Of a DNA stretch of 36,032 nucleotides, positions 1,397 through 29,404 are shown piece after piece (position 1 is the stretch's first letter; each line of letters opens with the position of its first letter). A program made the translations under genes and the position numbers. The notes beneath the pieces are model-generated. The model was not told the origin of the DNA, ran no database searches, and was given only the letters and a program-made list of their open reading frames with translations. Source of the stretch: Minisyncoccota bacterium (GTDB lineage: Bacteria; Patescibacteriota; Minisyncoccia; UBA6257; JAKLIH01); NCBI GenBank assembly GCA_028702045.1, contig JAQVPP010000002.1, positions 1-36,032 on the forward strand, written 5' to 3'.

Positions 1397-3106
1397 ATGG
1401 GATTATCTCTTCAAATTTTAAAACCAATTTTATTAGAAAGTAAACTAATTAATGAACAAGAATTCAACGATGCATTAGACATATCAAAAAGAACTGGACA
1501 AGATGTTGCTGATCTACTTATTTCTCAAGGTTACTTAACTAAAGAATATTTAACTGAGCTAATATCTCTGTATCTTAAAATACCAAAAATAAAATTAAAG
1601 GGTAGATCAATTGATCCAAAATATCTAAACATGCTTACCGAGCAAATAGCTCGCTCTAAAAAAGCAGTTGTGTTTGGTGAAGAGGGTATGCACTTGCAAG
1701 TTGCTTTAGTTGATCCATCTAACTTAGATTCTGTTCGTTTTTTAGAAAGTTATCTTAATAGGCCAGTCAAAGTATATATTACTACAGAAGAAGAGTTGCG
1801 AGAAGTATTTTCATATTACAGACAACAACTTACTGAAAAATTTAAATCAATTACAGAAAAAAATGTTAAAGAAGCAGCCAAGCTAAAGAGTCTATCTCCT
1901 GATAAAGCTGCCGTAGAATTACCAATAGTTTCTTTAGTAGATACTCTTATTGAATATGCTGCATCATTAAATGCAACTGATATCCATATTGAAATTATGG
2001 CTGATTTTGTCTTAATTCGTTTTAGAATAGATGGTCTTCTAAAGGAAATAATCACATTACCAAAAGAAACCCATCCAGCTATATTAGCTAGAGTTAAGAT
2101 TATGGCTAATATGAAAATTGATGAGCATCAGCGTCCACAAGATAGTAGGTTTAAGTTTAAGCAAGGCGATGATGTCTTTGATGTTCGTGTGTCTGTCTTA
2201 CCTACATATTTTGGAGAAAAGATTAACATGCGTTTGCTTTTAGGAGCCTTAAAGCCTCTAAGTTTATTTGAGCTTGGTATGAATGAGAAAGTTGCAGAAA
2301 CAGTTGTGGCTAATATTAAAAGAACTTACGGTATGATACTTGTTACAGGTCCTACTGGTTCTGGTAAAACCACTACCCTGTATTCTATTTTAAGTATTTT
2401 AAATAAACCAGAAGTAAATATTGTTACTGTAGAAAATCCAGTTGAGTATGAATTAAAGTATATCAATCAAGTTAATGTTAATCCTCAAGCTGATTTAACA
2501 TTTGCCACATCTCTTAGATCTATTTTGCGTCAGGATCCTGATATTATCATGGTCGGAGAAATCCGTGACTCAGAAACCGCCAATATTGCAATTAATGCCG
2601 CACTTACTGGACATTTGGTTTTATCTACTCTTCATACCAACGATGCTGCTACAGCTATACCTCGTTTAATTGATTTAGGTGTTCCTCCTTTTTTAGTTTC
2701 AGCTACTGTTAATTTAATTATTGCTCAAAGACTTGTCAGAAGGATTTGCAAAGACTGCGTAGCTAGTTATGATATTACTCCAGAAGTTAGCAAATCAATT
2801 CTTAATCAATTACAGGCTATAGATGAAAATCACACAGAGGCAGATGTACCTACTTTATTATATAAAGGACTTGGTTGTTCTTCTTGTGGAGGCAAAGGGT
2901 CCAAAGGAAGAGTAGGTATTTATGAAGTTTTAAATGTTTCTGATGACATGAGAGGGTTAATTCAGGAAGATAATTTTTCTTTAGAAAAATTAAGAAACCT
3001 ATCTAGAACAGAAGGCATGAAAGTTTTATTTGAGAATGGATTAAAAAAAGCAGAACTAGGATTAATTTCTTTAGAAGAATTGTTTAGGGTTGTACGAGAA
3101 AGTTAA
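1397..3106 (+). CDS. pilB: Type IV pilus / type II secretion assembly ATPase (PilB/GspE family)
   Basis: Walker A GPTGSGKTT, Asp box NIVTVENPVEY, Walker B DPDIIMVGEIRD, His box TGHLVLSTLHTND, and a tetracysteine cluster CKDC...CSSCGG. The N-terminal domain is T2SSE_N-like. Confidence 0.93.
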   Translation: MGLSLQILKPILLESKLINEQEFNDALDISKRTGQDVADLLISQGYLTKEYLTELISLYLKIPKIKLKGRSIDPKYLNMLTEQIARSKKAVVFGEEGMHLQVALVDPSNLDSVRFLESYLNRPVKVYITTEEELREVFSYYRQQLTEKFKSITEKNVKEAAKLKSLSPDKAAVELPIVSLVDTLIEYAASLNATDIHIEIMADFVLIRFRIDGLLKEIITLPKETHPAILARVKIMANMKIDEHQRPQDSRFKFKQGDDVFDVRVSVLPTYFGEKINMRLLLGALKPLSLFELGMNEKVAETVVANIKRTYGMILVTGPTGSGKTTTLYSILSILNKPEVNIVTVENPVEYELKYINQVNVNPQADLTFATSLRSILRQDPDIIMVGEIRDSETANIAINAALTGHLVLSTLHTNDAATAIPRLIDLGVPPFLVSATVNLIIAQRLVRRICKDCVASYDITPEVSKSILNQLQAIDENHTEADVPTLLYKGLGCSSCGGKGSKGRVGIYEVLNVSDDMRGLIQEDNFSLEKLRNLSRTEGMKVLFENGLKKAELGLISLEELFRVVRES

Positions 3107-3116
3107 AAAAATAAAT

Positions 3117-4325
3117 ATGTTATTTCACTACAAAGCATTTAATCAAAATAATATTCTAGTAGAAGGAGAGATAGAGATGAACACAAAGCAAGAAGTGTTA
3201 ACTTTTTTATATAACCAAAACTTAAAGCCAATTAATATCAAGACTCTTGAAAAAAAGTTTGAGCTAAAGAACCTTGAGATTTTTGCTAAAAAAATTACTC
3301 TTAAGGATAAAGTTTTTTTATTCAAATACTTGGCCTTGATGTTAAGCGTAGGTACAGACTTGGTTGCAGCCATGAGAATATTATTAAGTGATTATACAAC
3401 AGGTCCAATACATGAGTTCTTACTTGAAGTAAAGAATAATCTTGAAAAAGGTTTACCTTTTAGTTTAGCCTTTGAGCAAAATCCTACTCAATTTTCTTTA
3501 ATTACAGCTAACCTAATCAAGGCAGGAGAAAAGTCAGGTAACTTACAAGAGGTTTTTGAGAAATTATCATATACCCTTGAGAAAAATTCAGACTTGCAGA
3601 CAAAAGTTAAATCATCTCTTAGTTATCCAATTATTTTAATTGTTATGTGCGTAGTTTTAGTCTATGCTTTACTTGTTTTTATTTTTCCTCAAATGGGATC
3701 TATTTTTAAGAAAAATGATATGGAAATCCCAGCCTTAACAAAATTCATGATGACCTTATCTGATTTTTTAAATGCTAACATGGTAGTTGTTACTATTTTG
3801 ATGATTCTAGTCCCTATAATATTATTCATATATTTTTCCAAAACTAGTTCAGGTAAAAAGACATTAAACACTATTGTTAATTTTGTAAAACCAATTAGGA
3901 TTTTACTTGAAAAAATTATCTTACAAAGATTATGTTCTACTCTTGCATCTTTGATTAAGTCTGGTATGCCTATTATTACAGCTTTGCAGATTACAAGTAA
4001 TACGCTAGGTAATATACGCTATGAGGAAGCCATGAAAAGAATTGTTTTAAAAATTACTCGCGGTACATCTATTGGAGAATCATTTAGAGCTGAGCCTGTT
4101 TTTCCAAGTAGTTTGGTTAACTTGATTTCTATTGGAGAAAAGGCAGGAAGTACATATAATATATTAATTACTTTAGCTGACTTTTATGAAAAAGAAATTG
4201 ACGCATCACTTAAGTCTTTGGTTTCTTTAATTGAGCCTACCATCCTTATCTTTATGGGAGTTATGGTAGGAGGTATTGCTATATCGGTCGTCATGCCAAT
4301 GTATAAAATAGTAGGAACATTCTAA
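3117..4325 (+). CDS. pilC: Type IV pilus platform protein (PilC/GspF family)
   Basis: Polytopic membrane protein with two GspF-type repeats. The N-terminus MLFHYKAFNQNNILVEGEIE... is typical of PilC. I prefer ATG 3117 over the TTG at 3090 used by the ORF track. The stop overlaps the next ATG (TAATG). Confidence 0.88.
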   Translation: MLFHYKAFNQNNILVEGEIEMNTKQEVLTFLYNQNLKPINIKTLEKKFELKNLEIFAKKITLKDKVFLFKYLALMLSVGTDLVAAMRILLSDYTTGPIHEFLLEVKNNLEKGLPFSLAFEQNPTQFSLITANLIKAGEKSGNLQEVFEKLSYTLEKNSDLQTKVKSSLSYPIILIVMCVVLVYALLVFIFPQMGSIFKKNDMEIPALTKFMMTLSDFLNANMVVVTILMILVPIILFIYFSKTSSGKKTLNTIVNFVKPIRILLEKIILQRLCSTLASLIKSGMPIITALQITSNTLGNIRYEEAMKRIVLKITRGTSIGESFRAEPVFPSSLVNLISIGEKAGSTYNILITLADFYEKEIDASLKSLVSLIEPTILIFMGVMVGGIAISVVMPMYKIVGTF

Positions 4326-4990
4326 TGAAAAAAGCATTTACACTTGTAGAAATGACAATTACAGTAATTATCTTAGCCCTTATTATCACGGGTACTTTTA
4401 CATTACTCTTTAAACCAATGAGTGAATTTTATTTAAAAACTCAAACTGAAAACTTTGAAGAATATTTTGCCTTTATTCAAAACAAGAATTTAGCTGAAGC
4501 TAATCCAAATATTAATTCACACATGACCTTAAAAATAGATAATTCTAGTTCTGATTATTATCAAGCTAAACTTATTTCAACTATAGGATCAACTACTACT
4601 GATATTGATGTTTTAGATATTCAGTACTTTGCTGGCTTTAGCCAATTAATCAAACCAGCTCCAAGTAGTAGTATGACATTTAACTTGTGTTCTGGACTAT
4701 CTAATAATAGTAAAATTAATTTCTGTGATTCATCAAATGATATAATATGTGATGAAGATTATTATTTTGCCATAAAAAGTAAAATGTTTGACATTTTTTA
4801 TGTGGTTTTAATTAAGACTCCGTCACAAAAAGCTTGTACTCCAGAAGTATATATTAATAAAATTGATGATTTTTCAGTTTGTTCTGAATCAGTTAGTTAT
4901 GTTTGTGGAACAGATGGGTTGACATACAAAAATGAGTGCTATGCAGGGTTAAATAAGTTAGAAGTAGATTATGAAGGAGAATGTGAATAA
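4325..4990 (+). CDS. Type IV pilin-like protein with a C-terminal Kazal-like domain
   Basis: Class III signal and N-terminal helix MKKA|FTLVEMTITVIILALIITG, with Glu at +5. The C-terminus CSESVSYVCGTDGLTYKNEC....GEC fits the Kazal core C-x7-C-x6-Y-x3-C. Confidence 0.8.
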   Translation: MKKAFTLVEMTITVIILALIITGTFTLLFKPMSEFYLKTQTENFEEYFAFIQNKNLAEANPNINSHMTLKIDNSSSDYYQAKLISTIGSTTTDIDVLDIQYFAGFSQLIKPAPSSSMTFNLCSGLSNNSKINFCDSSNDIICDEDYYFAIKSKMFDIFYVVLIKTPSQKACTPEVYINKIDDFSVCSESVSYVCGTDGLTYKNECYAGLNKLEVDYEGECE

Positions 4991-7823
4991 AATAAAAAAA
5001 AGTTTTTCATTAGTTGAGATTTTAATCGCAATGATGATTTTAATTATTTTTATAGTACCCATAGCTACCATATCACTCATGTCAAAAGAAAAAATAGCTG
5101 ATTTTGAAGATCAAAAACAATTATATAATTTAGCTGTTGCTCAAATTGATGCTAATAATAAAAATATAGATACTGATGGTTTTGATTTTGAAAATCATCA
5201 CTTAAACTTTAACTACCTATATGTACCAGGATCTTCAAATAGGTTGGCTCAATATGATAGAATAGGTTTTTTAAATGATGATCCTGTTCTTAACTTAACT
5301 TTTGATGGTGCTCAAAAAATAGATGATGTATATTATGTTCGTGATGACAAGGCTACTATTAAAGGAACCTTATCAGTTACCGCTTCATCAACTACAACAG
5401 ACACTACAGGATATGAAACAGATTTTGACGATACTTCTGTAATTGAGAAACATCTAAATGAACCACAACCATATTATATAGGAGGAGGAGATAATTGTAT
5501 GTCAGGTCATTGCTTATTATTCTATGGAGATGTAACAAATGAAATAGCTTCTTTAGTTTCATTTAATAATGTTATTGGATGAGATCAATTTAATGAAGTT
5601 TCTTTTGAATTTTATTTCAAGCTTGACGAGGTTAGGGAAATGGAAATAGTTGGTAAAAATAATTTATCAATAGGAGTCGCCTCTAATTCAAAACCATATT
5701 TCACATCTCAGTTTGTTACTTATGAGGAGGAAGGTACAACTACAACCAATGTTATAGGGACTAGTACAACCACCCTATTAGAACCAATTTTTTCTACTCA
5801 AACAATTCTTGGTACAACCACCTTGCAAGCAGATACTTGATATCACTATGTAGCTACCTATGACTATATTAGTGAAAAATTAAATATATATCTTAATGGT
5901 GTTTTAGAAAATTCAGAAGCTTATTCTGGTGATTCTGATTTTAGTTTAATCTCAGGTGACTTTTCTTTTGGAGGAACTCCAACCAAAGCATTCAAAGGTG
6001 TTCTTGATGAAGCTAAAGTATATGATTATTCATTAAGTGGTGAAGAAGTTAAGAACCACTACAACTTTTATGAAAGAAATAAAGGACTTCTTCTATACGA
6101 ATCATTTGATAGAGGGTTTAATTCTGCAAGTTATGAAGTTTTGCCTGAGATTGGTGATATATCCAGTGATGGACTACTAACAGGAGCCTTATTTAAGCTA
6201 TATAACACTAATTTATCTGATCATCAACAATTTGGTCATGCTATTGATTTTAACCACATTACAGGCACAGTCTATCCTACTTATGGTATTTTAGAATCAT
6301 CAGAAAGTAGTTTTAATTCAAAAATATCTACAAATGAATGATCACGTATGTTTGATTCTGATAATATTACTATGGAAATGTGAATCAGACCTACTACCAT
6401 AGATAATACTAAAAAAGGGTTAATCTCTAGAGGATATGAGAGTGGTGGATCATATACTATTAGCCAAGAAGCATATATCCAAAATGGATATTTGAATTTT
6501 TCAGTCAAAACAGATCAAGAAACAAATACCCTTACAGGCCTAACTCAGTTGCAGGCAGATACTTGATATTTAGTTTCTTTCTCATATGATGGACAAAGTC
6601 AAGCGATATATATCAATGGTGTACTTGATCAAGAAACCGTAACCACAGGAGATCTAATAGGGGGCCCATCTGGAGATACTATTTTTTACTTAGGTTACTC
6701 AGGGCAAAATTCTGAATATTTTTATGGAGATATTGATGAGCTTAGGATATATAATAGAGGATTAAGTGGCGATGATATTATCAACAGATTTAAAAAAGCA
6801 TACTCATATTATAAAAATGTACATCCAGTTTATCAAGTAGAGGATAGTTCCAAATATTTTTTCCAGAGAAACATGTTAACAGGATGTGTGGTCACAAATG
6901 ATGACACTTGTTCCCCTATATCTAATCCAATTGCTGGTATTTTTCACAACCCAGCCTTACTCTATACAATAGATATTGCTAGATATGGCGATGGAGTTGA
7001 TTTAGATTATTTAGATTTTCATCAAATTATTACAAACCATAGTTCTTTTGGTGTGCTTATGTATGAGAATGTACACTGGTCTAAAAACTCTAATTACTCA
7101 GGAACAGTATTAAACTATAAGTGTGATGCATCCAGTCAAAGGTGTTTTCCACGTCATGATGGACAATTTACAGATCTTGCAGAGTGTAATAGTTTATGTG
7201 CAGCATCCCAGTCAGCCGAGCCACCATATACATGTTCAGGATCTCAGTGTGTCATAGCCGATCCACAGCCAGGGCAGTATTCTACAGTAGAGGAATGTGT
7301 CACCGCTTGTGATATTGCTCCTCCAGCAGGTGCTAATGCATGTACTAATTTCTATTACTCAGATGATAATAAGGTTTGCCAGTCTGAAAATATTTCTTTT
7401 GGCGATTCTATTAGTTTAAACAATGTTGGACTTAGTGGATATATGATTTCTCAAACTTTTGATTTTGAAAAACCAACATCTATTTTAGCCTATTCGCTTG
7501 AGGGAGAGTTTGATCCTGCTCTTGTAAAAATTCAATTTGATTGTAAAGATGATATTGTTGATGCCTCAGGAGTAATGATTAGTGATGAAGCGTGACTATA
7601 TACAGGATCTTCAGATTATGAAACATGTTCAATTTCGTCATTCTACTCTATTGCACTAGAGAATTTTGGTGGGGCAGGTAATGCTAAGTTCCACCCAATC
7701 AAATCATGTTGAAGAACATATGAGAGGGAACCATCTTTTTGTAAATTTATGAGATTTAAATTAATCTTTGAGCCAGGTGCTGGTAGTATATCTAAGGTAG
7801 TATTTAGGATAGCTCAACAATAA
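4971..7823 (+). CDS. Giant pilin-like protein (~950 aa): pilin N-terminus, two LamG/concanavalin-like domains and Cys-rich C-terminal modules
   Basis: Track ORFs 4971-5582, 5640-5840, 6141-6341 and 6873-7595 share one frame. They are joined only by TGA (5580, 5838, 6339, 6381, 6564, 7593, 7710), with no TAA/TAG until 7821-7823. The N-terminus is KKS|FSLVEILIAMMILIIF. The start may instead be GTG 4983, preceded by AAGGAG. LamG signatures occur twice: LQADTWYHYVATYDY...FKGVLDEAKVYDYSLSGEEV and LQADTWYLVSFSYDG...FYGDIDELRIYNRGLSGDDI. Confidence 0.8.
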
Positions 7824-7880: not shown

Positions 7881-8864
7881 TTACTTTAAATCCAAAGTGC
7901 GACAGTTAGTATTAAAAAAGACTTCATTTGGTGTTTTGTAATTAAAACACTTTCTTGGTCTGTTATTTAAAAGGTTTTGTGCTTTTTTAACTTTAGTTAT
8001 TGTTAGTGTATCATATTTTGTTTTTTTAGGAAATCAATCTCTAATTAAACCATTAGTATTTTCATTAGTACCTCTTTGTTGTGATGAATAAGTATCGGCA
8101 AAATATACATTAATATCCAAGTCTTTTTCAATTAATTCGTAGTCACTAAATTCTTTTCCATTATCATATGTTATTGATTTAATATTAATATTTTTAAGAG
8201 ATTTAATTGTTTGTTTATATATGGTTTCTTTTTCATGGTTACTTAACAAATCTATTATTGTATATCTTGTTTTTCTATCAACATAAGTTAATAAACAAGC
8301 TGATCTAGGATGAAGGACCATAGTATCTCCTTCAAAATCACCAATCCTTAATCTTTTATCAATAACTTTTGGTCTATCATGTATAGATTTCTTATTACTG
8401 TCCTTTTCCCTTGCTTTAATGCGTATATTAGTCCCATATCTTCTGCGAAACTTATTTTTCTTATGTCTTAGGTATTGTCATAATTCTTTACGTGTATATA
8501 TGTACTTATATATCGTAGGATAAGATATATATCATTTATTATTGGTTTCTATATTCCACCTATTAGCTATCTGATCAGGAGATCATTTAAGCTTTAAATG
8601 TTTTAAAATATATGTCTCTAGTGTTTTATTGTTTAATATCTTATCCAGCCTATAATTGGCTTTTAGTCTTTTATTAACATATCTTTTCTTTGATAAACTA
8701 CTGTTATATTTTCCTTCCTTAATCCCTCTTTTAATTTCTCTATGAATAGAACTTCTGTGCTTATTAAACATTTTTGCTATCTCTGTTACCTTAGGGGGAT
8801 TAGCTAAATTTAAAAGATACTGTAGACTATCTTTTTGTTCTGTGGTAATATGTGTATAGGTCAT
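7881..8864 (-). CDS. IS30-family DDE transposase (327 aa, intact under TGA=Trp)
   Basis: Track ORFs 8583-8864(-) and 8034-8321(-) plus the gaps form one frame with four TGA and a TAA stop at 7881-7883. It has an N-terminal HTH. IS30 hallmarks are present: SPDQIANRW, GDFEGDT, TYDNGKEF, QQRGTNENTNGLIRDWFPK and NNRPRKCFNYKTPNEVF. Confidence 0.88.
7885..7918. repeat. Left terminal inverted repeat of the IS30-like element
   Basis: tttaaatccaaagtgcgacagttagtattaaaaa matches the reverse complement of 8922-8957 (tttaaactcgaagtgcgacactttagtaatttaaaaa) with a few mismatches and indels. Confidence 0.65.
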
Positions 8865-8921
8865 AAATTTTAGTTTAAAGTTTTTGTTAATTCATAAATA
8901 CTTTACCAAATTTATGGCCTT

Positions 8922-8957
8922 TTTTAAATTACTAAAGTGTCGCACTTCGAGTTTAAA
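8922..8957. repeat. Right terminal inverted repeat of the IS30-like element
   Basis: See the left IR. The shared core is AAGTGCGACA, flanked by TTTAAA at the outer tip. Confidence 0.65.
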
Positions 8958-8972
8958 TTCGCCCGCTTTCAT

Positions 8973-9001
8973 TTGACAATTTAATATTTTTATGTTCTAA
9001 T
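8973..9001 (+). promoter_or_regulatory. Candidate promoter for ORF 9062
   Basis: TTGACA (8973-8978), a 17-nt spacer, then TCTAAT (8996-9001), just outside the right IS end. Confidence 0.4.
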
Positions 9002-10419: not shown

Positions 10420-12108
10420 ATGAATTTTAAAAAAATAAAAGCAATTACTTTGGTTGAACTTTTAATATATATTGCACTTAGTATTATAGTAAGTTTAATT
10501 TTATTACAAGCAACTAATTTAATTTTAAATAAAAAAAATATTAATGATGAAATTAAAGAAAATGTAGAATCAATAGAAGCAAGAAAAGCATCTGCATTAT
10601 TATCTCAATATGTTAAAAAACCAATTACAGCAATACCACCATTTATAAATTTACCTCCGTCTCCACCCAATACAGATCCTAGTATAAGTATCCCCATATT
10701 TAACCCATGAGGAGAGTTTGGGCCCATTGATGTAATTATTGGTCCATCTACTGGGAATGGATGTTATTGCATATATTGTACAGTAGCAATGTATGGAAAT
10801 CCACCTGGTGATATTTTTTTACCAACAGCCAAGCAAAATACACCAAAAATTATAGAAACTTGTTATGCGTCATCTAACTTAGTAATAGATTCTTCTCAGT
10901 CTAGCCAAGGGCTTAAAAATGGTATAGCTTGATCAGATTGTCCCCCTATGGAAGATCAGTCTCATGATTTAAAATTAACAAATTTAATAGCTGGAGCCAA
11001 AAATACATCATCTACAGAAGAAGCAATTGAATATTTAGAACAAGAGAAAAAAACATTAGGGTGTTATGAATCTAAAGTTAAAGAAGAAAGATTTGAAGAT
11101 AATATTTCAGTATGTGATTCTATTGATCAAAAAATTCAAGAAATACTACATCTAGATAAAGTTATTGATGATGAATGTCCCTATTGTGTAAATATGAAAA
11201 TTATTTGAATTCCTTGGCCAAACCCACCAAAACTTCCTGGCGGACCAGGACAAGGGAAAGGAGAAGAGTATTATGTTTCAAGTATTGGCACTTCTCCAAT
11301 AGACAATTTTAATAGATTTGCATGATCAAGTAATGTTGGATGAATAGATTTTTCAGGAGTAAGAACAAGTAAAAATAGTTTTGATTTAAATGGTTTTGCC
11401 ACAGTAGTAAGTAATAATAGTAAAATTTCTTTAAACTGCGAAAACACAAATTCTTGTAAAAACTCAGATTACAAAGTTAGTGTTAGTGATCAAGGTGTTT
11501 TGCATGGGCATGCCTGGGGGGGAGACACTCTAGGCTGAATTAGTTTTAATTGTCAAGAAGGGGGTCAAGATGGCGAAAATATATGTGATACATCTCTTTA
11601 CGGAGTATATATAGAACCACAAACAGCCAAGTTTAATGGTTACGCTTGATCAGAAAATATTGGCTGAATTAGTTTTGACTGTTCAACGGGGGGTACTGGA
11701 ATGACAAATGTCTGTAGTTCCTCTGACTATGGAGTACAAATGTCATATTTAAAAGAAGGATATATTACTTTAGGATTTGACGAAGGCTCATACACTATTC
11801 CTTTAGAGGGGTATAACAAATATGATATAGACTCAGTTTCCAACACTACAGCTACAAATGATGGAGTATTTACTTTAACTAGTATTTCAGGTAGTAACTT
11901 TATGACAGGTGCCTTAGTATACTTATATAATAAGGACTACGGTAATGTATACTCAATCAATACACCTACATACAACTCAAATGAGATGATATCAAATATT
12001 CAATTTGATTTAGAGGATAAGCCTACAGGATATTACTCAGCTATATTTGTAAATCCTAATGGCGATTATGGAATTTTAAACAATGCAATCAATGTCACAT
12101 CAAACTAA
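10420..12108 (+). CDS. Pilin-like protein (562 aa) with Pro-rich linkers, three AWSxNxGWIxF repeats and a C-terminal Ig-like (IPT/TIG-like) region
   Basis: Track ORFs 10420-10710, 10948-11208 and 11701-12108 share a frame joined by TGA (10708, 10930, 11206, 11323, 11341, 11536, 11647, 11665). The N-terminus is MNFKKIKA|ITLVELLIYIALSIIVSL. The C-terminal stretch FTLTSISGSNFMTGALVYLYN...GYYSAIFVNPNGDYGILNNAINV resembles IPT/TIG, but that call is weak. Confidence 0.78.
11308..11715 (+). repeat. Three tandem coding repeats with the motif A-W-S/G-x-N/D-x-G-W-I-x-F
   Basis: FNRFAWSSNVGWIDF (11308-11352), HGHAWGGDTLGWISFNC...C (11500-11586) and FNGYAWSENIGWISFDC...C (11632-11715). At DNA level, ggctgaattagtttt recurs at 11533 and 11662. 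Most of the Trp codons are TGA. Confidence 0.8.
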
Positions 12109-12731: not shown

Positions 12732-14360
12732 ATGAAAAAAATTTCCTTTTTAAATAAATTTAAAAAATACTTATCGCCACAAGAAAATGCTGGTGCTTTT
12801 GAAGTAAATGATAAAACAATCAAGTGTTTTTATTTTGAACCAAATACATATAAGATATCATATTATGATATTGAGCAATTAAAGCCTGGCACAATAGAAA
12901 AAGGGGAAATAAAGAATTTACCAGAATTTGAAAAAACTTTATTAAAAATCAAAAATAAAAGAAAAAAGTTTTTTAAAAACAATCCATATATTATCTTATC
13001 TCTTCCAGCTGAAAACTTTTTCACAACAGTCATAGAGGTTCCTAAAGATACACTCAACTTTTCTAATTTAGAAGATACTGTTAAGTTAAATATAGAGAGT
13101 ATAACTCCTATCCCTTTAGAGGAAGGATATCTAGACTGGGAGTCAATAGAAGAAGAGGGTTCTGAAAATCTATCTATCTTTACTGGTATTGGGAAAAAGT
13201 CATCTATTGATATTTATCTTTCTTGTTTTTATAAAAATGGATTCAAAGTATTGGCTGTAGAAAAGCCAGCCTTAGGATTATCTAGGTTTGTTTTTAATTA
13301 TTCAAATATAAAAGTTCCATACTTACTCGTAAACATAGATAGAGATGGAGTAGATTTTTTAATAGCTGATGATAAAAAAATATATTTCTATGATTTTGAT
13401 GAGTGATCAAAAATTACTCAATTTCCTATTCAACAATTTTTAAATACCAGTGACCTTACTGCATACTATACAAGAAAAATAAATCAAATACTTAGTCATC
13501 ATGAAAATAAGAATCATATCAAGGTTCAAGGTTTTTATTTTTTCAGCTTAGTTCCTAATATCAAGCAATATTCCATTACCTTTATCCAAAACACATTCAA
13601 ACTACAGTTTATTCAAAATCAACTTCCAGGTAATATTCAAAAATTATCAGAAGAGTGAAACGGGGTAATAGGATCAGCTTTTAGAGGACTTATCCCAAGG
13701 GCCAAAGATACTATCATAAGCATGATGGCCATAGGCACAGAAGAAGAGTATCAGCAAACTAAATTGTTCAGATTCGTATATATGTGAGCTCGTTTTATTT
13801 CTATTTTATTTTTGTCTAGTGCAATAATCTTTTGATCACTAAATACTTTTGTTTTCCAGAAATTAAACAAGCCTCAAGAAATAACTCAAACATCACAACA
13901 ATCTAAGCTATCTCAAGATAAGGTTGCCCTAGAGGAACAGCTAGAGTTATTTAATTACTATGTTCCAAGATTAATCAATGTATACAAGGAGCAACCAAAG
14001 TACAGTGAGTATTTTTCTGATATACACTTACTAGCTAGTCAAAACAATATTGATATTTTAGAAATATATTATGGAGGAAATATTACCAATATTACCATCC
14101 AAGCCAAATCAACTTCAAAAAAATCAATAACAAATTTTAAAAAGGATCTAGAAACTTTAGAGAATTTTACCTATGTATCCTCACCAGTAGAGTCCATATC
14201 AAATGAAAATGGAAAATACTTCTTTACAATTAAGATAAGCTATGGAAAAGATGCACCAATAGTACAATCTTCTCAAGAAATTAGTCCAACCAGCACCATA
14301 GATATACAGACAACCACTACAAAAAGCAAAGAAACAACAATATTAACCTTACCAGAATAA
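12732..14360 (+). CDS. pilM: PilM-PilN(-PilO-like) fusion protein (542 aa)
   Basis: Track ORF 12732-13406 continues in frame through TGA at 13404, 13656, 13785 and 13833 to TAA at 14358-14360. The N-terminal half is PilM/actin-like (LSLPAENFFTTVIEVPK, LDWESI, VLAVEKPALGLSRF, LLVNIDRDGVDFLI). A TM follows (WARFISILFLSSAIIFWSLNTFVF), then a coiled, PilN/O-like periplasmic tail. Confidence 0.65.
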
Positions 14361-14697: not shown

Positions 14698-17600
14698 ATG
14701 AATTATTCACAAACAAGAAATTTGCAAAAAAAGAATTTTGCTACAATTCCTAATGATTTTATTACACAATCATTACTTGAATTTCAGTTAAATAGTTTTA
14801 AGGAATTTCAAGAAATGGGAGCCAAAAGAATATTCAACGATGTATTTCCTATCTATGATTATAGTAAGGAACTATTTCAGTTAGAATTTGTTGACCTATT
14901 TTTTGAAGAACCAAAAATATCTGTTGAAGAAGCCATTGAAAAAAATGGATTCTATACTTCTTCTTTAAGAGGTATTTTTAGGCTCACTAACTTAAAAACT
15001 AAAGAGAAAAAAGAGCAAGAAATATATTGTGGAGATATTCCTGTTTTAACAGACAGAGGTACTTTTGTTATTGATGGAAATGAAAGAGTTGTTATTTCTC
15101 AATTATTAAAGTCTCCAGGTGTTATTTTCACAACCAAATTCTCACCTCACTTAAATACTAATGCAACTGTTTGTTCCCTTACTCCAGAGCGTGGAGCTTG
15201 ACTTGAGTTTACTACAGAATCATCAGGTATAATTACAGCTAAAATAGATAGAAAAAAGAAAGTTCCTTTTACTGTAATTTTAAAAGCCTTTGGCGTAAAG
15301 GATAATGATGAAATAAAGCAATTATTCCAATCAGTAGATACAGGAGTAATATCTTTTATTGAAAAAACTTTAGAAAAAGATACAACTACAGATACCAAAG
15401 AAGCTATTCTTGAGATTCACAGAAGAATGAAACCAAGAGAGCATCAAGCTTATGATAACGCTCTTGATTATTTTAATAGTAATTTTAAGAGATTTGATAG
15501 ATATGATTTAAGTAGAGTTGGTAGATACAAGATGAACAAGAGATTAGGTTTTAAAGATTTATCTCCAGCAGAATTAGAAAATAGAGATAATAGATTATTA
15601 ACTTTAAAGGATCTTATTGAATCATCCAAAACTTTAATTCAAATGAATAATGACTTATCATCTAAGAGTGATGTTGTTGATCATTTAGGGAATAGAAGAG
15701 TTAAGCCAAATGGTAAATTACTTGAGGCAAAACTTTATCAATCATTAATTCAAATTAAAAGACAAGTTCAAGATAGAATGGCCCTATTAGACCATGCTAC
15801 ACTAACAGCTGCTCAACTTATTAGTCCTAAAGTAATATCAGCTAACTTTACTAGTTTCTTTAAGATATCTCCTCTTTCACAAATAGTTGATCAAGTTAAT
15901 GTATTATCTGAATTATCACATAAAAGAAAATTAACCAGTACAGGTCCTGGTGGTATTAAATTAAAAACAAAATCAGGTGCAGAGATTAGAGATGTACATC
16001 CAAGTCATTATGGAAGAATCTGTCCAATCAACACTCCAGAAGGACAAAATGTTGGATTAGTTTTAGCTTTATCAATATACTCTAGATTAAATGAATTTGG
16101 TTTTATTGAAACTCCATACTATAAAGTAAAGAATGGAAAAATATCAAATGAAATAGTTTGATTAAATGCCCTAGAAGAAGAAGATCATATTATAGCTAGA
16201 GGAGACATTGATCGTGATAAAAATAATAAAATTATTCACGAATATGTTGAGTCAAGATACAAAGGAGAACCAGTTTTAAAACCAAGAGAAGAAATAGATT
16301 TAATTGACGTTGCTCCTAATCAATTATTATCAGCTACTACAGCCTTAATTCCATTTATCCAACATGATGAGGCTCACAGAGCCCTTATGGCTACTTCCAT
16401 GCAAAAGCAGGCCTTACCTTGTATTAATATAGAAAAACCATATGTTGCTACAGGTCTTGAGGAAAAAATAGCCAGAGATTCAAAAAGATTAATCTTAGCT
16501 AAACATGATGGAAAAATAGAAGAAGTAGATTCAAAACATATTGTAGTAAATATTGGTAAAGGAAATAAAGATATTTATTTGCTAGACAATTTTGTTAGAA
16601 CAAATAAAAAGACATTCCTTCATCACAAACCTATTGTTAAAAAAGGTGATTCTGTTAAGCAAGGTGATATTTTAGCTGATAACTCTTCTACAGAGGATGG
16701 ACAACTAGCTTTAGGAAATAATATCAGAATTGCTTTTATGCCATGATATGGTTATACATTTGAAGATGCCTGTATTATTTCTGAAAAGATGTTAAAGGAA
16801 GATAAGTTCACTTCTGTCTATACAGAAAGATTTGAAATAGAGCAAAAAGAAACAAAACTAGGTAAAGAAGAGTTAACTAACGATATTCCTAATGTTTCAG
16901 AAAAACAATTAGCTAATCTAGATGAGGAAGGTATTATTGTAGAAGGAGCAGAAGTTATTCCTAAAGATATTTTAGTAGGAAAAGTTTCTCCAAAAGGAGA
17001 ACTTGAGCTTACTCCAGAGGAAAAATTAATGAAAGCAATTTTTGGTAAAGAATCCAAGGATATCAAAGATACTTCTTTAAGATTAGAGAATGGTAAAAAA
17101 GGAAGAGTTATCCATACCAAAGTATTAACCAGAAAAAATGGAGACAAATTAAAAGTAGGTGTAATTAAAAAGATTTTAATTGAAATTGCTGAATTAAGAA
17201 AATTAAAAACAGGAGACAAATTAGCAGGAAGACATGGTAATAAGTCTATTATTGCTTTGATTGCTCCAGAAGAAAATATGCCATTTACTAAAGATGGTAA
17301 ACCAGTTGATATCATTATTTCATCTTTGAGTATTCCTAGTCGTATGAACATAGGACAAGTATATGAGTCTCAACTAGGTATTATTGCTAAAGAAAAGAAT
17401 TTCCAAGCAATTACTCCTTCATTTAATCATGTTAGTGCTCAATATATCCAAGAAGAGCTTAAAAAACTTAACCTAGATATTGATGATACAGGAAAAGTTG
17501 ATTTATTTGATGGTATTACAGGAGAAAAGTTTAGTGAAAAAGTATTAGTAGGTATTAAATATTTAATGAAACTTGATCACATGGTTGATGACAAGATTCA

Positions 17601-17916
17601 TGCTCGTTCAGTTGGTCCATATGCCTTAATTACTCAACAACCACTTAAGGGTAGAACTAACGAGGGAGGTCAGAGATTAGGAGAGATGGAGGTCTGAGCT
17701 TTAGAGGCTTATGGCGCAGCCAAGACTCTTCAAGAATCTATTACAACCAGATCAGATGATATTGTTTCAAGAAGCTTAGCTTACTCATCTATATTAAAAG
17801 GTGAAACTATCCAACCACCTGTTTTGCCAGCAGCTTTTGATGTTGTCTTAAGCGAATTAAAAGGTCTTTGCCTAAATGTCAAGATAAAATATATCGAGGA
17901 ATATAAAAATCAATAA
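14698..17916 (+). CDS. rpoB: DNA-directed RNA polymerase subunit beta (1072 aa)
   Basis: Four track ORFs (14698, 15427, 16387, 16789) share one frame joined by TGA at 15199, 16159, 16744 and 17695. At least three of the four sit on Trp positions conserved in RpoB (RGAW-LEF, FMPW-YGY, GEMEVW-ALEAYGA). The stop is TAA at 17914-17916. Confidence 0.97.
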
Positions 17917-17932
17917 AAATTAAATTTTTATT

Positions 17933-21560
<3,628 letters not shown>

Positions 21561-21577
<17 letters not shown>

Positions 21578-27745: not shown

Positions 27746-29404
27746 ATGAAAAATATATTAATTGCTACAGCTTGACCATATGTAAATGGAGATTTGCATA
27801 TAGGACATACAGGAGGCTACTTACTTCCAGCAGATATTATTGCTCGCTATCACAGATTAATTAAGAATAATGTTTGTGTTGTTTCTGGTGCAGACTGTCA
27901 TGGCACGCCAGTAACAGTAGAAGCAGAGAAAACTAATATATCTCCACAAGAGATAGTAGACAAGTATTACCCAACTCACTTAGAGATATTTGATAAGTTA
28001 AATATTAATTTTGATATATATACTAAAACTACTACAGATAATCATAAGCAAACAGTCCAGGATGTTTTCTTAACTTTACTTAACAAGGGATACATATTCA
28101 AACAATCATCTGTTCAGTTTTTTAGTCAAAAAGAAAATAAATTCTTACCAGATAGATATGTAAAAGGTATATGTCCATTTTGTAATCAAGAAACTAGTGC
28201 TGATCAATGTGATAACTGCAACAAAATTATAGAAGCAAGTGAACTAAAAGATCCAATAAGTAAATTAACCAATAGTCCTGTTATTTTAAAAGAAACAGAG
28301 CACTATTACATGGACTGATCTAAGGCTGAAGATTTTCTTAAACAGTATTTTAATGAATACAAAGATAATTGGAAAGACTGGGTCCAGTCTGAAACAAAGG
28401 CTTGACTTGATCAAGGGCTAAAGCCTTGACCAATCACAAGAGATATGGACTGAGGCATAGAGATTCCCAAAAATGATATTCCAGAAGACCTTCTAATAGA
28501 TAACATAGAAAACAAGAGAATATATGTTTGATTTGAGGCTGTTATTGGCTATCTTTCAGCTACCAAAGAATTACTAAAAGATAAGTATACTGATTTTTGA
28601 TTTAGCAAAAATTGTAAGCAATACTATTTCATGGGTAAGGATAATTTAGTCTTCCACACATTATTCTGGCCAGCACAACTTCATTTATATAACCCAGATA
28701 TCAATTTACCTGATGTTTTGAGTGTTAATAATTTCCTAAACCTTGAGAATAAGAAGTTTTCCAAAAGCAAAGGGATTACTATTAGCAATATATACATGGT
28801 AGATACTTATGGCCTAGACCAAACTCGCTTTTATTTAGCTTCTATTTGTCCTGAGGCAAATGATGCTAACTTTATGTGAAAAGATTTTCAGCAAAAAATT
28901 AATGATGTCCTTAACTCAAATTTTGGCAACCTGGTTAACAGAATTTTAAAGTTGTTTAAGGATTACGAAATACCTAATATACCTGCCAGCGATGAAGTAA
29001 TTAATAAAATAAAAGAAACAAAAGATAAGGTATGTACTTCTCTTGAAAAAGTTGAAATTAAAAATTATGTTAATAATTTTTGTTCATTAATTGATTTTTC
29101 AAATAAATATTTATCAATTAAGGCTCCATGGAAAAATAAAGATAATATTGATGAATTTAATCAAACAATGATAGATTGTTTCTATCTTTTAGTTGCTATT
29201 GATATTTTTATCAAACCTCTATTAATTAAAAGTTCAGAAAAAATAGAACAAATGTTAAATATACAAATAGATTATTGAAAAGATGATATTATCTCTCAAA
29301 TTAAAGATAATATTAAACAAATTAAAAGAACAGATGACATTCAACCTATTTTTTCAAAAATAGAAGATGATCAAATTAATCAAGAAATTGATAAATTAAA
29401 TTAA
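27746..29404 (+). CDS. metG: Methionine--tRNA ligase (552 aa)
   Basis: ATG 27746. The HIGH motif is LHIGH and the KMSKS motif is KFSKSKG, with a Cys knuckle CPFC...CDNC. Three track ORFs are joined by about nine TGA, several at Trp positions typical of MetRS (AW-PY, DW-GIEIP, YVW-FEA). Confidence 0.93.

Follow-up and report, generated by a model that had tools for sequence, protein, structure and literature searches.

The stretch analysed here, hereafter the window, comprises 36,032 nucleotides of a Minisyncoccota bacterium (contig JAQVPP010000002.1 of assembly GCA_028702045.1, positions 1 to 36,032 of the forward strand) and includes a type IV pilus operon, in which we identified a pilin gene whose product carries a Kazal domain at its C-terminus. 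This gene (4325..4990, +) encodes 221 amino acids (aa) and ends in a TAA stop codon at 4988-4990, while its ATG overlaps the stop codon of the preceding pilC gene within the sequence TAATG. The open reading frame (ORF) has no in-frame TGA, and its translation is therefore independent of the genetic code. A preliminary description of the locus had read a 221-aa protein here with its last ~50 residues at 4835-4987, and both the frame and the letters proved exact: positions 4835-4987 encode C171 to E221, CTPEVYINKIDDFSVCSESVSYVCGTDGLTYKNECYAGLNKLEVDYEGECE, and positions 4901-4939 encode VCGTDGLTYKNEC. The protein is made up of a pilin module (residues 1-179), a linker (I180-V185; 4862..4879, +), and a four-cysteine Kazal domain (C186-C220 plus E221; 4880..4987, +) assigned with Pfam, AlphaFold2 (AF2) and Foldseek. 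All eight cysteines (8/8) are conserved across the proteins of four assemblies.

Assignment of the C-terminus to the Kazal family is based on both sequence profiles and predicted structure. Searched as a whole against Pfam, the protein matched Kazal_2 (PF07648) with 25.8 bits (cut-off 22.8) and Kazal_1 (PF00050) with 23.9 bits (cut-off 21), the matched part corresponding to residues 186-220, while the 51-aa stretch alone gave 30.9 and 31.2 bits, respectively, with E-values of 2-3e-7. Searching 1.84 billion representative proteins exhaustively with phmmer returned 1348 matches at E<=1e-3. Among the matches listed, all but a homologue with 98% identity (P0001) cover only the C-terminus of the query, ending at residues 206-221, and the short matches that were inspected are tandem Kazal repeats; a word-indexed protein search with the 53-aa C-terminus as query gave no candidate. 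PDB chains matched by sequence include agrin, ovomucoid, follistatin, GmSPI-2, LDTI, rhodniin and PSTI. Modelled with AF2 from an 80-row alignment of Kazal repeats, the construct spanning residues 165-221 reached a predicted local distance difference test (pLDDT) score >90 over residues 185-221, the Kazal part being modelled confidently without the pilin module, with predicted strands at 193-195, 200-201 and 214-217 and a helix at 204-209. The first 50 Foldseek matches of this model in the PDB were all Kazal domains, the best being GmSPI-2 (4hgu; template-modelling score 0.83, root-mean-square deviation 1.1 A, 42% identity), and LDTI structures superposed within 0.5-0.9 A (1an1, 0.5 A). Furthermore, the secondary structure reported for GmSPI-2 (PMC4169406) is a near residue-for-residue match to the predicted elements. 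The preliminary description had proposed a Kazal-like domain from a C-x7-C-x6-Y-x3-C core around 4901-4939, to be checked by profile search and by structure prediction; the core is present as C186-x7-C194-x6-Y201-x3-C205, and both the profile scores and the fold comparison bear the proposal out. At the level of structure, we have high confidence that the protein is a pilin bearing a genuine Kazal fold.

The domain follows the spacing C186-x7-C194-x6-Y201-x3-C205-x14-C220, with no cysteine 2-3 residues past C205, and its four cysteines are invariant in the 80-sequence alignment. It had been described as an atypical Kazal domain missing the fifth cysteine. While C5 is indeed absent, C1 is absent too, and the arrangement is no oddity, being shared exactly by 480 of the 618 C5-less Kazal repeats found among the 149 best environmental matches. 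Judged by this layout, the domain lacks both C1 and C5, and hence the third (C1-C5) disulfide, making it non-classical, though still of the Kazal family; the missing cysteines exclude a classical Kazal domain only, since GmSPI-2 and the same 480 repeats lack them as well. GmSPI-2, a wax-moth silk protein and potent inhibitor of subtilisin and proteinase K, has four cysteines paired as Cys5-Cys24 and Cys13-Cys39, with a seven-residue stretch separating the first two, and Thr7 at P1 (PMC4169406). Because HMMER aligns the domain to GmSPI-2 with no gaps (query 2-38 on chain 3-39), C186, C194, C205 and C220 can be placed on Cys5, Cys13, Cys24 and Cys39, and E188 on the P1 residue. The disulfides are accordingly predicted as C186-C205 (C2-C4) and C194-C220 (C3-C6), the reactive-site loop as C186-S-E-S-V-S-Y-V-C194 (4880..4906, +), and P1 as Glu188 (codon 4886-4888), two residues past the first cysteine. 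Within the loop, S187, E188, V190, S191, Y192 and V193 are invariant in the four orthologues, and S189 is replaced by Thr in two. Downstream lies T200-Y201-K-N203-E-C205, where the columns of T200, Y201 and N203 are at least 90% conserved in the 80 Kazal repeats, as are the columns matched by D197, G195, A207 and G218. N203 is the counterpart of Asn33, which braces the loop in the ovomucoid third domain (OMTKY3).

Compared with known Kazal proteins, the domain thus most resembles GmSPI-2, with the same four-cysteine spacing, a gapless alignment, two disulfides (here predicted), a seven-residue loop and the same secondary structure, differing in its fusion to a pilin, in Glu rather than Thr7 at P1, and in that its inhibitory activity is a prediction. 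With the ovomucoid third domain, SPINK1 and LDTI it shares the C2-x7-C3-x6-Y-x3-C4 core, the loop-bracing Asn, a beta-hairpin with helix, and, as predicted, the C2-C4/C3-C6 pairing; unlike classical Kazal domains (ovomucoid, SPINK1) it lacks C1, C5 and the third disulfide, and the N-terminal segment is replaced by the pilin linker. Environmental multi-Kazal proteins (P0018, P0064, P0116) share the pattern C-x7-C-x10-C-x14-C, a frequently acidic P1, 50-59% domain identity, and the common tail ...Y-A-G-L-x-x-[LV]-x-V-x-Y-E-G-E-C. These proteins bear tandem arrays behind ordinary signal or lipoprotein signals, in contrast to the single pilin-borne domain of the window, and a pilin N-terminus is absent from all 149 other proteins listed. 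The environmental repeats closest to this domain (P0003-P0151) show two layouts, one with four cysteines (PVCG[VTSA]DG) and one with an extra cysteine pair (an upstream x-G-x-C together with PVCGCDG), and a few of the four-cysteine proteins carry the Joint Genome Institute (JGI) label ‘putative hemolysin’.

The pilin module opens with a class III (prepilin) signal (4325..4408, +) consisting of the leader M-K-K-A, a predicted cleavage site before F5, and Glu9 as the +5 Glu. The N-terminus reads MKKA followed by FTLVEMTITVIILALIITG, such that FTLVEM directly after the leader is succeeded by ~20 hydrophobic residues, with the alpha1-N helix extending to about L28. This region passes the cut-off of the NCBIfam model TIGR02532 (17.3 bits against 16.3) and falls slightly under that of Pfam N_methyl (19.7 bits against 21.2), which orthologues from sister clades exceed (22.2-22.8 bits); A4, F5, T6, L7 and E9 are invariant among eight orthologues. 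The remainder of the module (residues 29-179; 4409..4861, +) includes C122, C134, C142 and C171, all four invariant in the alignment with sister-clade orthologues (26% identity), and ends with the motif C-x-P-x-x-Y-I. C171 had been considered as a possible first Kazal cysteine, an assignment that does not hold: alignment places it in the pilin module, because it is invariant in the orthologous pilins, including the extension-less orthologue of locus L085, which ends ...C-K-P-T-V-Y-I-Q-E. This orthologue stops at the end of the pilin module, equivalent to about residue 179, just ahead of the linker, and AF2 pLDDT drops below 50 at residues 178-183 (construct residues 14-19). Residues 1-170 had no sequence match in the PDB, and its one sub-threshold family likeness is to the minor pilin ComGD. 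By its signal motif and its pilB-pilC-pilM context, the carrier is classed as a type IV pilin.

At 98% and 88% identity, the same protein occurs in three further assemblies, one from a JGI metagenome, one from a Logan run and one from another JGI sample, and all of them keep the PilB-PilC-pilin-LamG context. The ratio of nonsynonymous to synonymous substitution rates (dN/dS) was 0.04-0.10 for the whole gene; split by module, it was 0.02-0.09 in the pilin part, where dS rose to 1.3, and 0.07-0.17 in the Kazal part, where dS reached 0.5. The fusion is therefore genuine, being found in four independent assemblies under strong purifying selection. Also, G+C content at third codon positions is equal in the Kazal segment (0.167) and the pilin segment (0.168), and the Kazal module is therefore no recent foreign insertion. 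In public data the fusion surfaces only in the automatic JGI label ‘pseudopilin PulG’ with PF07648 that the homologue with 98% identity bears. A metagenome scan yielded one further close homologue and one unrelated single-Kazal secreted protein, and nothing else. At locus L084 (273-1226), on another metagenome contig, a 317-aa secreted, coiled-coil-rich protein with a single four-cysteine Kazal domain at its end provides a second example of one Kazal module on an unrelated extracellular carrier.

Comparison with sister clades revealed that the Kazal domain occupies a variable position. No relatives of PilC were found between 92% and 52% identity, and the next ones are named Candidatus Paceibacterota, Parcubacteria or Minisyncoccia. 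In these sister clades PilC is 51-52% identical, gene order is the same as far as rpoB, and the loci have 28-31% G+C with many in-frame TGA codons. The gene directly after pilC is a pilin in every sister locus, ranging from 168 to 749 aa with a varying C-terminus: slot pilins of 168-197 aa have no extension, those of 242-247 aa carry a ~50-aa Cys-rich extension that is non-Kazal by Pfam or hhalign, one of 308 aa carries GWISFNC repeats, and one of 749 aa large Cys-rich modules. Since orthologues in this slot share the pilin module with its four cysteines while ending at C-x-P-x-x-Y-I or carrying an unrelated extension, the comparison identifies the Kazal part as a lineage-specific graft on a shared pilin module. 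Read across these loci, the slot bears the hallmark of a minor, modular pilin in which lineages swap the effector module. Upstream of pilB, the sister loci have canonical pilin genes, one or two per locus, whose products carry Gly at -1 (TIGR02532, 36 bits), and because the slot orthologues coexist with these and vary so widely in length, the Kazal-bearing subunit is probably a minor pilin.

Several further features of these loci were recorded. In L085, L092, L094 and L096 a multi-pass membrane protein of ~206-227 aa is also encoded directly upstream of pilB. The ~50-aa Cys-rich extension (L087 2429-3172, L089 11238-11966, L090 2141-2869 and L091 4489-5229) follows the pattern C-x5-C-I-N-x-x-x-Y-x-N-x-C ... 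C-S-C and bears a faint resemblance to a Kazal core; considered as a degenerate Kazal domain it had no Pfam hit and an hhalign probability of 2%, and it was treated as unrelated or unclassifiable. Scanning GTDB species genomes with the pilin found nothing. A Kazal motif near pilus genes was present in none (0/80) of the PilB-linked loci from GTDB species genomes (PilB <=49% identity), nor did one occur in the additional sister loci.

Within the window, the order of genes is PilB, PilC, Kazal pilin, LamG pilin, transposase, a 427-aa protein, a 562-aa protein, a 203-aa protein, PilM, rpoB and rpoC, and three pilin-type signals occur in the operon. PilB (1397..3106, +) is an assembly ATPase with T2SSE and an MshEN N-domain, and PilC (3117..4325, +) is a T2SSF platform protein of 402 aa, as in relatives; the Kazal pilin gene is translationally coupled to both. 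Directly downstream, and overlapping the 3' end of the Kazal pilin gene, lies the gene for a 950-aa modular pilin (4971..7823, +) that combines a prepilin signal with two lectin-like Laminin_G_3 domains and a C-terminus rich in cysteines, and that is an analogue of the Streptococcus sanguinis lectin pilin PilC. This gene contains seven in-frame TGA codons read as Trp, by which standard-code ORF calling fragments it, and the Cys-rich C-terminal region of its product repeats ...E-E-C-x-x-x-C motifs. An IS30-like transposase ORF (7884-8996, -), identified by eye from helix-turn-helix and DDE-type motifs under genetic code 4, separates the LamG pilin gene from the next gene of the pilus operon; sister-clade operons have no such gene at this point. 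The 427-aa protein, of no assigned family, is encoded between the transposase and the gene at 10420. The latter (10420..12108, +) specifies a 562-aa pilin-like protein with a KAITLVELL signal and GWISFNC-type repeats, for which NCBIfam matches were weak and below threshold. Its repeat, (A/G)W(S/G)xN(I/L)GWISF(N/D)C...Y(K/G)V, has no Pfam match, and the slot pilin of sister locus L094 (6261-7187) has a C-terminal module made of the same repeat. The gene for the 203-aa protein lies between it and that of the PilM-like assembly protein (12732..14360, +), the last pilus gene before rpoB. At the other end of the operon, a Cys-rich protein is encoded upstream of pilB (1-1396), the corresponding region of L001 (1-3681) encoding a PG_binding_1 protein.

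The window has 28% G+C and TGA is read as a sense codon throughout: in 20 genes we counted 50 in-frame TGA against 20 TGG codons, and all stops are TAA or TAG. In methionyl-tRNA synthetase (MetRS; 27746-29404), four of the seven TGA codons align with a Trp conserved in both of the best PDB homologues and none with Gly, ruling out the UGA-to-Gly reading (code 25) of Gracilibacteria/SR1. Motifs in RpoB (14698-17916) and RpoC (17933-21577) also agree with Trp, compared with the corresponding E. coli sequences. On the evidence of codon usage and these alignments, TGA encodes Trp (code 4) in the window. The first report of UGA-to-Trp reassignment in Patescibacteriota is a preprint of May 2026 (bioRxiv 10.64898/2026.05.24.727570), and, judged by the code together with the Minisyncoccia affinity of PilC, the window probably comes from the UGA-to-Trp Minisyncoccia lineages reported there. 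Sister locus L089 (GCA_028691405.1, JAQUZI010000005.1) has fragmented gene calls, e.g. an HrcA of 102 aa and a DnaJ of 79 aa, and once TGA is taken as a sense codon the ORFs regain their full length, with 1-6 in-frame TGA each; this public assembly seems to have been annotated with the wrong (standard) genetic code. Rfam and tRNA scans of the window gave no match.

From these features we propose that the pilus probably presents, outside the cell, a module that inhibits or binds proteases. The prepilin leader would be cleaved before F5, and the hydrophobic alpha1 helix would then insert the subunit, with a globular pilin head held by two predicted disulfides, into the filament assembled by the PilB, PilC and PilM machinery, such that the Kazal domain would end up outside the cell. 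Its position would most likely be that of a minor pilin, probably at the tip, complexed with the two large modular pilins of the neighbouring genes. There, a serine protease could be bound tightly by the standard substrate-like mechanism, with Glu188 in its S1 pocket; this mechanism is proposed because the canonical architecture is kept, i.e. the seven-residue loop, the C186-C205 and C194-C220 clamps, N203, and the Tyr of the TY-x-N-x-C motif. With Glu at P1, the ovomucoid third domain reportedly inhibits the Glu-specific Streptomyces griseus protease strongly and most other enzymes more weakly, and by extension Glu188 suggests as the most likely partner a Glu-preferring S1 enzyme such as a glutamyl endopeptidase, or a tolerant subtilisin-like S8 enzyme. 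The benefit may lie in shielding the pilus tip and the lectin adhesin from host or community proteases. We rate this full chain, from a pilus-borne Kazal domain through inhibition of a serine protease to protection of the tip, as having about an even chance of being correct.

A number of observations weigh against this chain or parts of it. In the reactive-site loop, Y192 sits where Pro is at least 90% conserved, and V190 occupies P2', usually Tyr, Trp or Phe. P1 is Asp or Glu in 258 of the 618 C5-less environmental repeats (42%), a share that is unusual for classical serine-protease inhibitors, and the whole subfamily could, from such counts, be something other than a classical inhibitor family. 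In the P1-variant series of OMTKY3, acidic residues are said to be poor for most S1 and S8 proteases, and many eukaryotic Kazal-like domains, such as those of follistatin, agrin and SPARC, are not inhibitors. A search of the literature found no functional study of any prokaryotic Kazal domain. On the side of the carrier, the residue at -1 is Ala where Gly is usual, and a full-length AF2 model from three sequences, comprising a helix at 3-58 followed by beta strands, had a mean pLDDT of 39.7. The 36-kb window holds no recognised prepilin peptidase gene and no major pilin; neither it nor L001 has a canonical pilin upstream of pilB, unlike all sister clades examined, and for this reason the status of the subunit as a minor pilin is not secure.

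The irregular loop (P2 Ser, P1 Glu, P2' Val, and Tyr for the near-invariant Pro) speaks for a different explanation, namely that the Kazal-like module is non-inhibitory and serves as a small disulfide-stabilised binding or capping module of the follistatin/agrin/SPARC kind. Its roles might then be adhesion to a host-surface ligand, contact with the lectin pilin, or formation of a protease-resistant subunit end. In the sister clades this slot holds orthologues with different C-terminal modules or with none, which suggests small binding or capping units that can replace one another, and the characterised modules of modular pilins are mostly adhesive (PMC8179133, PMC9934059). Conversely, comparisons by fold and by full-domain sequence both give bona fide inhibitors as the closest solved structures (GmSPI-2, LDTI, infestin and ovomucoid), the loop has kept its length, its bracing Asn and both predicted disulfide clamps, and its residues are nearly invariant under purifying selection. 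A two-disulfide Kazal domain from Phytophthora, different from that described here, inhibits subtilisin-family proteases (PMC1236909). On balance we regard a purely non-inhibitory module as somewhat unlikely, although it is the best-placed of the alternatives.

The missing canonical pilin upstream of pilB in the window and in L001, where all sister clades examined have one, lends some weight to a further possibility, that the Kazal pilin is instead the major subunit, such that the whole shaft would be coated with Kazal domains, be they inhibitors or not. The gene is the first pilin gene after the platform gene, like comGC in Com operons, and its product is very strongly conserved (98% aa identity at a dS of 0.26). 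However, sister orthologues coexist with Gly(-1) canonical pilins and, at 168-749 aa, are typical of minor modular pilins, the only sub-threshold family likeness is to the minor pilin ComGD, and the window represents 36 kb of the genome, leaving room for a major pilin to be encoded elsewhere. A major-subunit role is therefore considered unlikely.

Still less probable, and in our estimate quite improbable, is that the genes build a short pseudopilus of the type II secretion system (T2SS) or Com-like DNA uptake kind, hardly projecting beyond the envelope, with the Kazal domain acting not at a distance but in the cell wall zone, e.g. by shielding the machinery from the cell's own proteases. Such a structure would accord with the JGI call of the 98% homologue as a PulG-type pseudopilin, with the weak sub-threshold ComGD, ComGE and ComGF matches of the pilins, and with the absence of a PilT retraction ATPase gene from the window. 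Conversely, there is neither a secretin gene nor any other gene specific to a T2SS, an adhesive pilus would fit the 950-aa lectin-type pilin and PilM, and the relatives are Patescibacteria, whose type IV pili are described as central to motility and to dealings with the host (PMC13293708). The idea of a chance cysteine pattern or of an assembly chimera, for which only the shortness of the domain (36 residues) speaks, is effectively refuted by the two Pfam models above curated thresholds, the 1348 significant matches, the confident fold model with Kazal-only matches, and the four independent assemblies under purifying selection.

Beyond protection of the tip by the inhibitor proposed above, we also considered a ‘protease-trap’ adhesin, in which a Kazal domain at the tip, or all along the shaft if this is the major pilin, would grip a serine protease exposed on a host or prey cell with the affinity of an inhibitor. 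This is a long shot. Were it true, an ultra-small epibiont would be using a host protease as its attachment receptor while disarming it, and the variable slot module across sister clades would be a determinant of host range.

The modular pilin concept was set by PilB and PilC of S. sanguinis, and a survey counts more than 1,200 modular pilins in 264 architectures (Raynaud et al. 2021, PMC8179133). In S. sanguinis, a tip complex is built from minor pilins that bear vWA and lectin modules (PMC8179133, PMC9934059), and the minor pilins make up a glycan-binding complex (PMC9934059). With a pilin module, a short linker and an independently folding domain, as modelled, the Kazal pilin falls within the definition of a modular pilin (Raynaud et al. 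2021). The order of pilin module, linker and C-terminal functional module is that of S. sanguinis PilB (vWA) and PilC (lectin); as there, the gene adjoins one for a lectin-type (Laminin_G_3) pilin, and the module varies between orthologues. It differs in that the module is a 36-residue Kazal domain and the organism an uncultured Patescibacteria-like bacterium. The accessible survey text names adhesin, carbohydrate-binding and peptidase modules and mentions neither Kazal domains nor protease inhibitors (PMC8179133), and a full-text literature search found no paper linking Kazal domains with pilins, in keeping with the preliminary description, which knew of no described example. Its further statement that a protease inhibitor on a pilus subunit would be presented in an unusual way holds in part: the fusion is supported by Pfam, TIGR02532 and the operon, and is unusual in the kind of module only, modular pilins as such being established (PMC8179133). 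Modular pilins and prokaryotic Kazal homologues are each known; what is new, and would be unexpected to specialists, is the kind of module, the principle itself being familiar.

Protection of an extracellular machine by an attached inhibitor has a conceptual likeness elsewhere. Dockerin-bearing cellulosomal serpins of Clostridium thermocellum, reportedly described by Kang and co-workers in Molecular Microbiology in 2006, are likewise inhibitors borne on an extracellular nanomachine and presumed to be protective. They differ in inhibitor family, in attachment (dockerin-cohesin) and in the machine itself, and there is no homology between the two systems.

Although the clade is small and uncultured, the 42-residue module is accessible in vitro without culturing the organism, and the sister pilins with other modules or none represent a natural experiment on module swapping. 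Type IV pili are the main tool with which cells of the Patescibacteria, or candidate phyla radiation, reach and hold their hosts. If the Kazal domain is an inhibitor, it would add a new functional class to the adhesin, lectin, DNA-binder and peptidase modules of pilins, and would give a first functional handle on the prokaryotic Kazal domains that are abundant in metagenomes.

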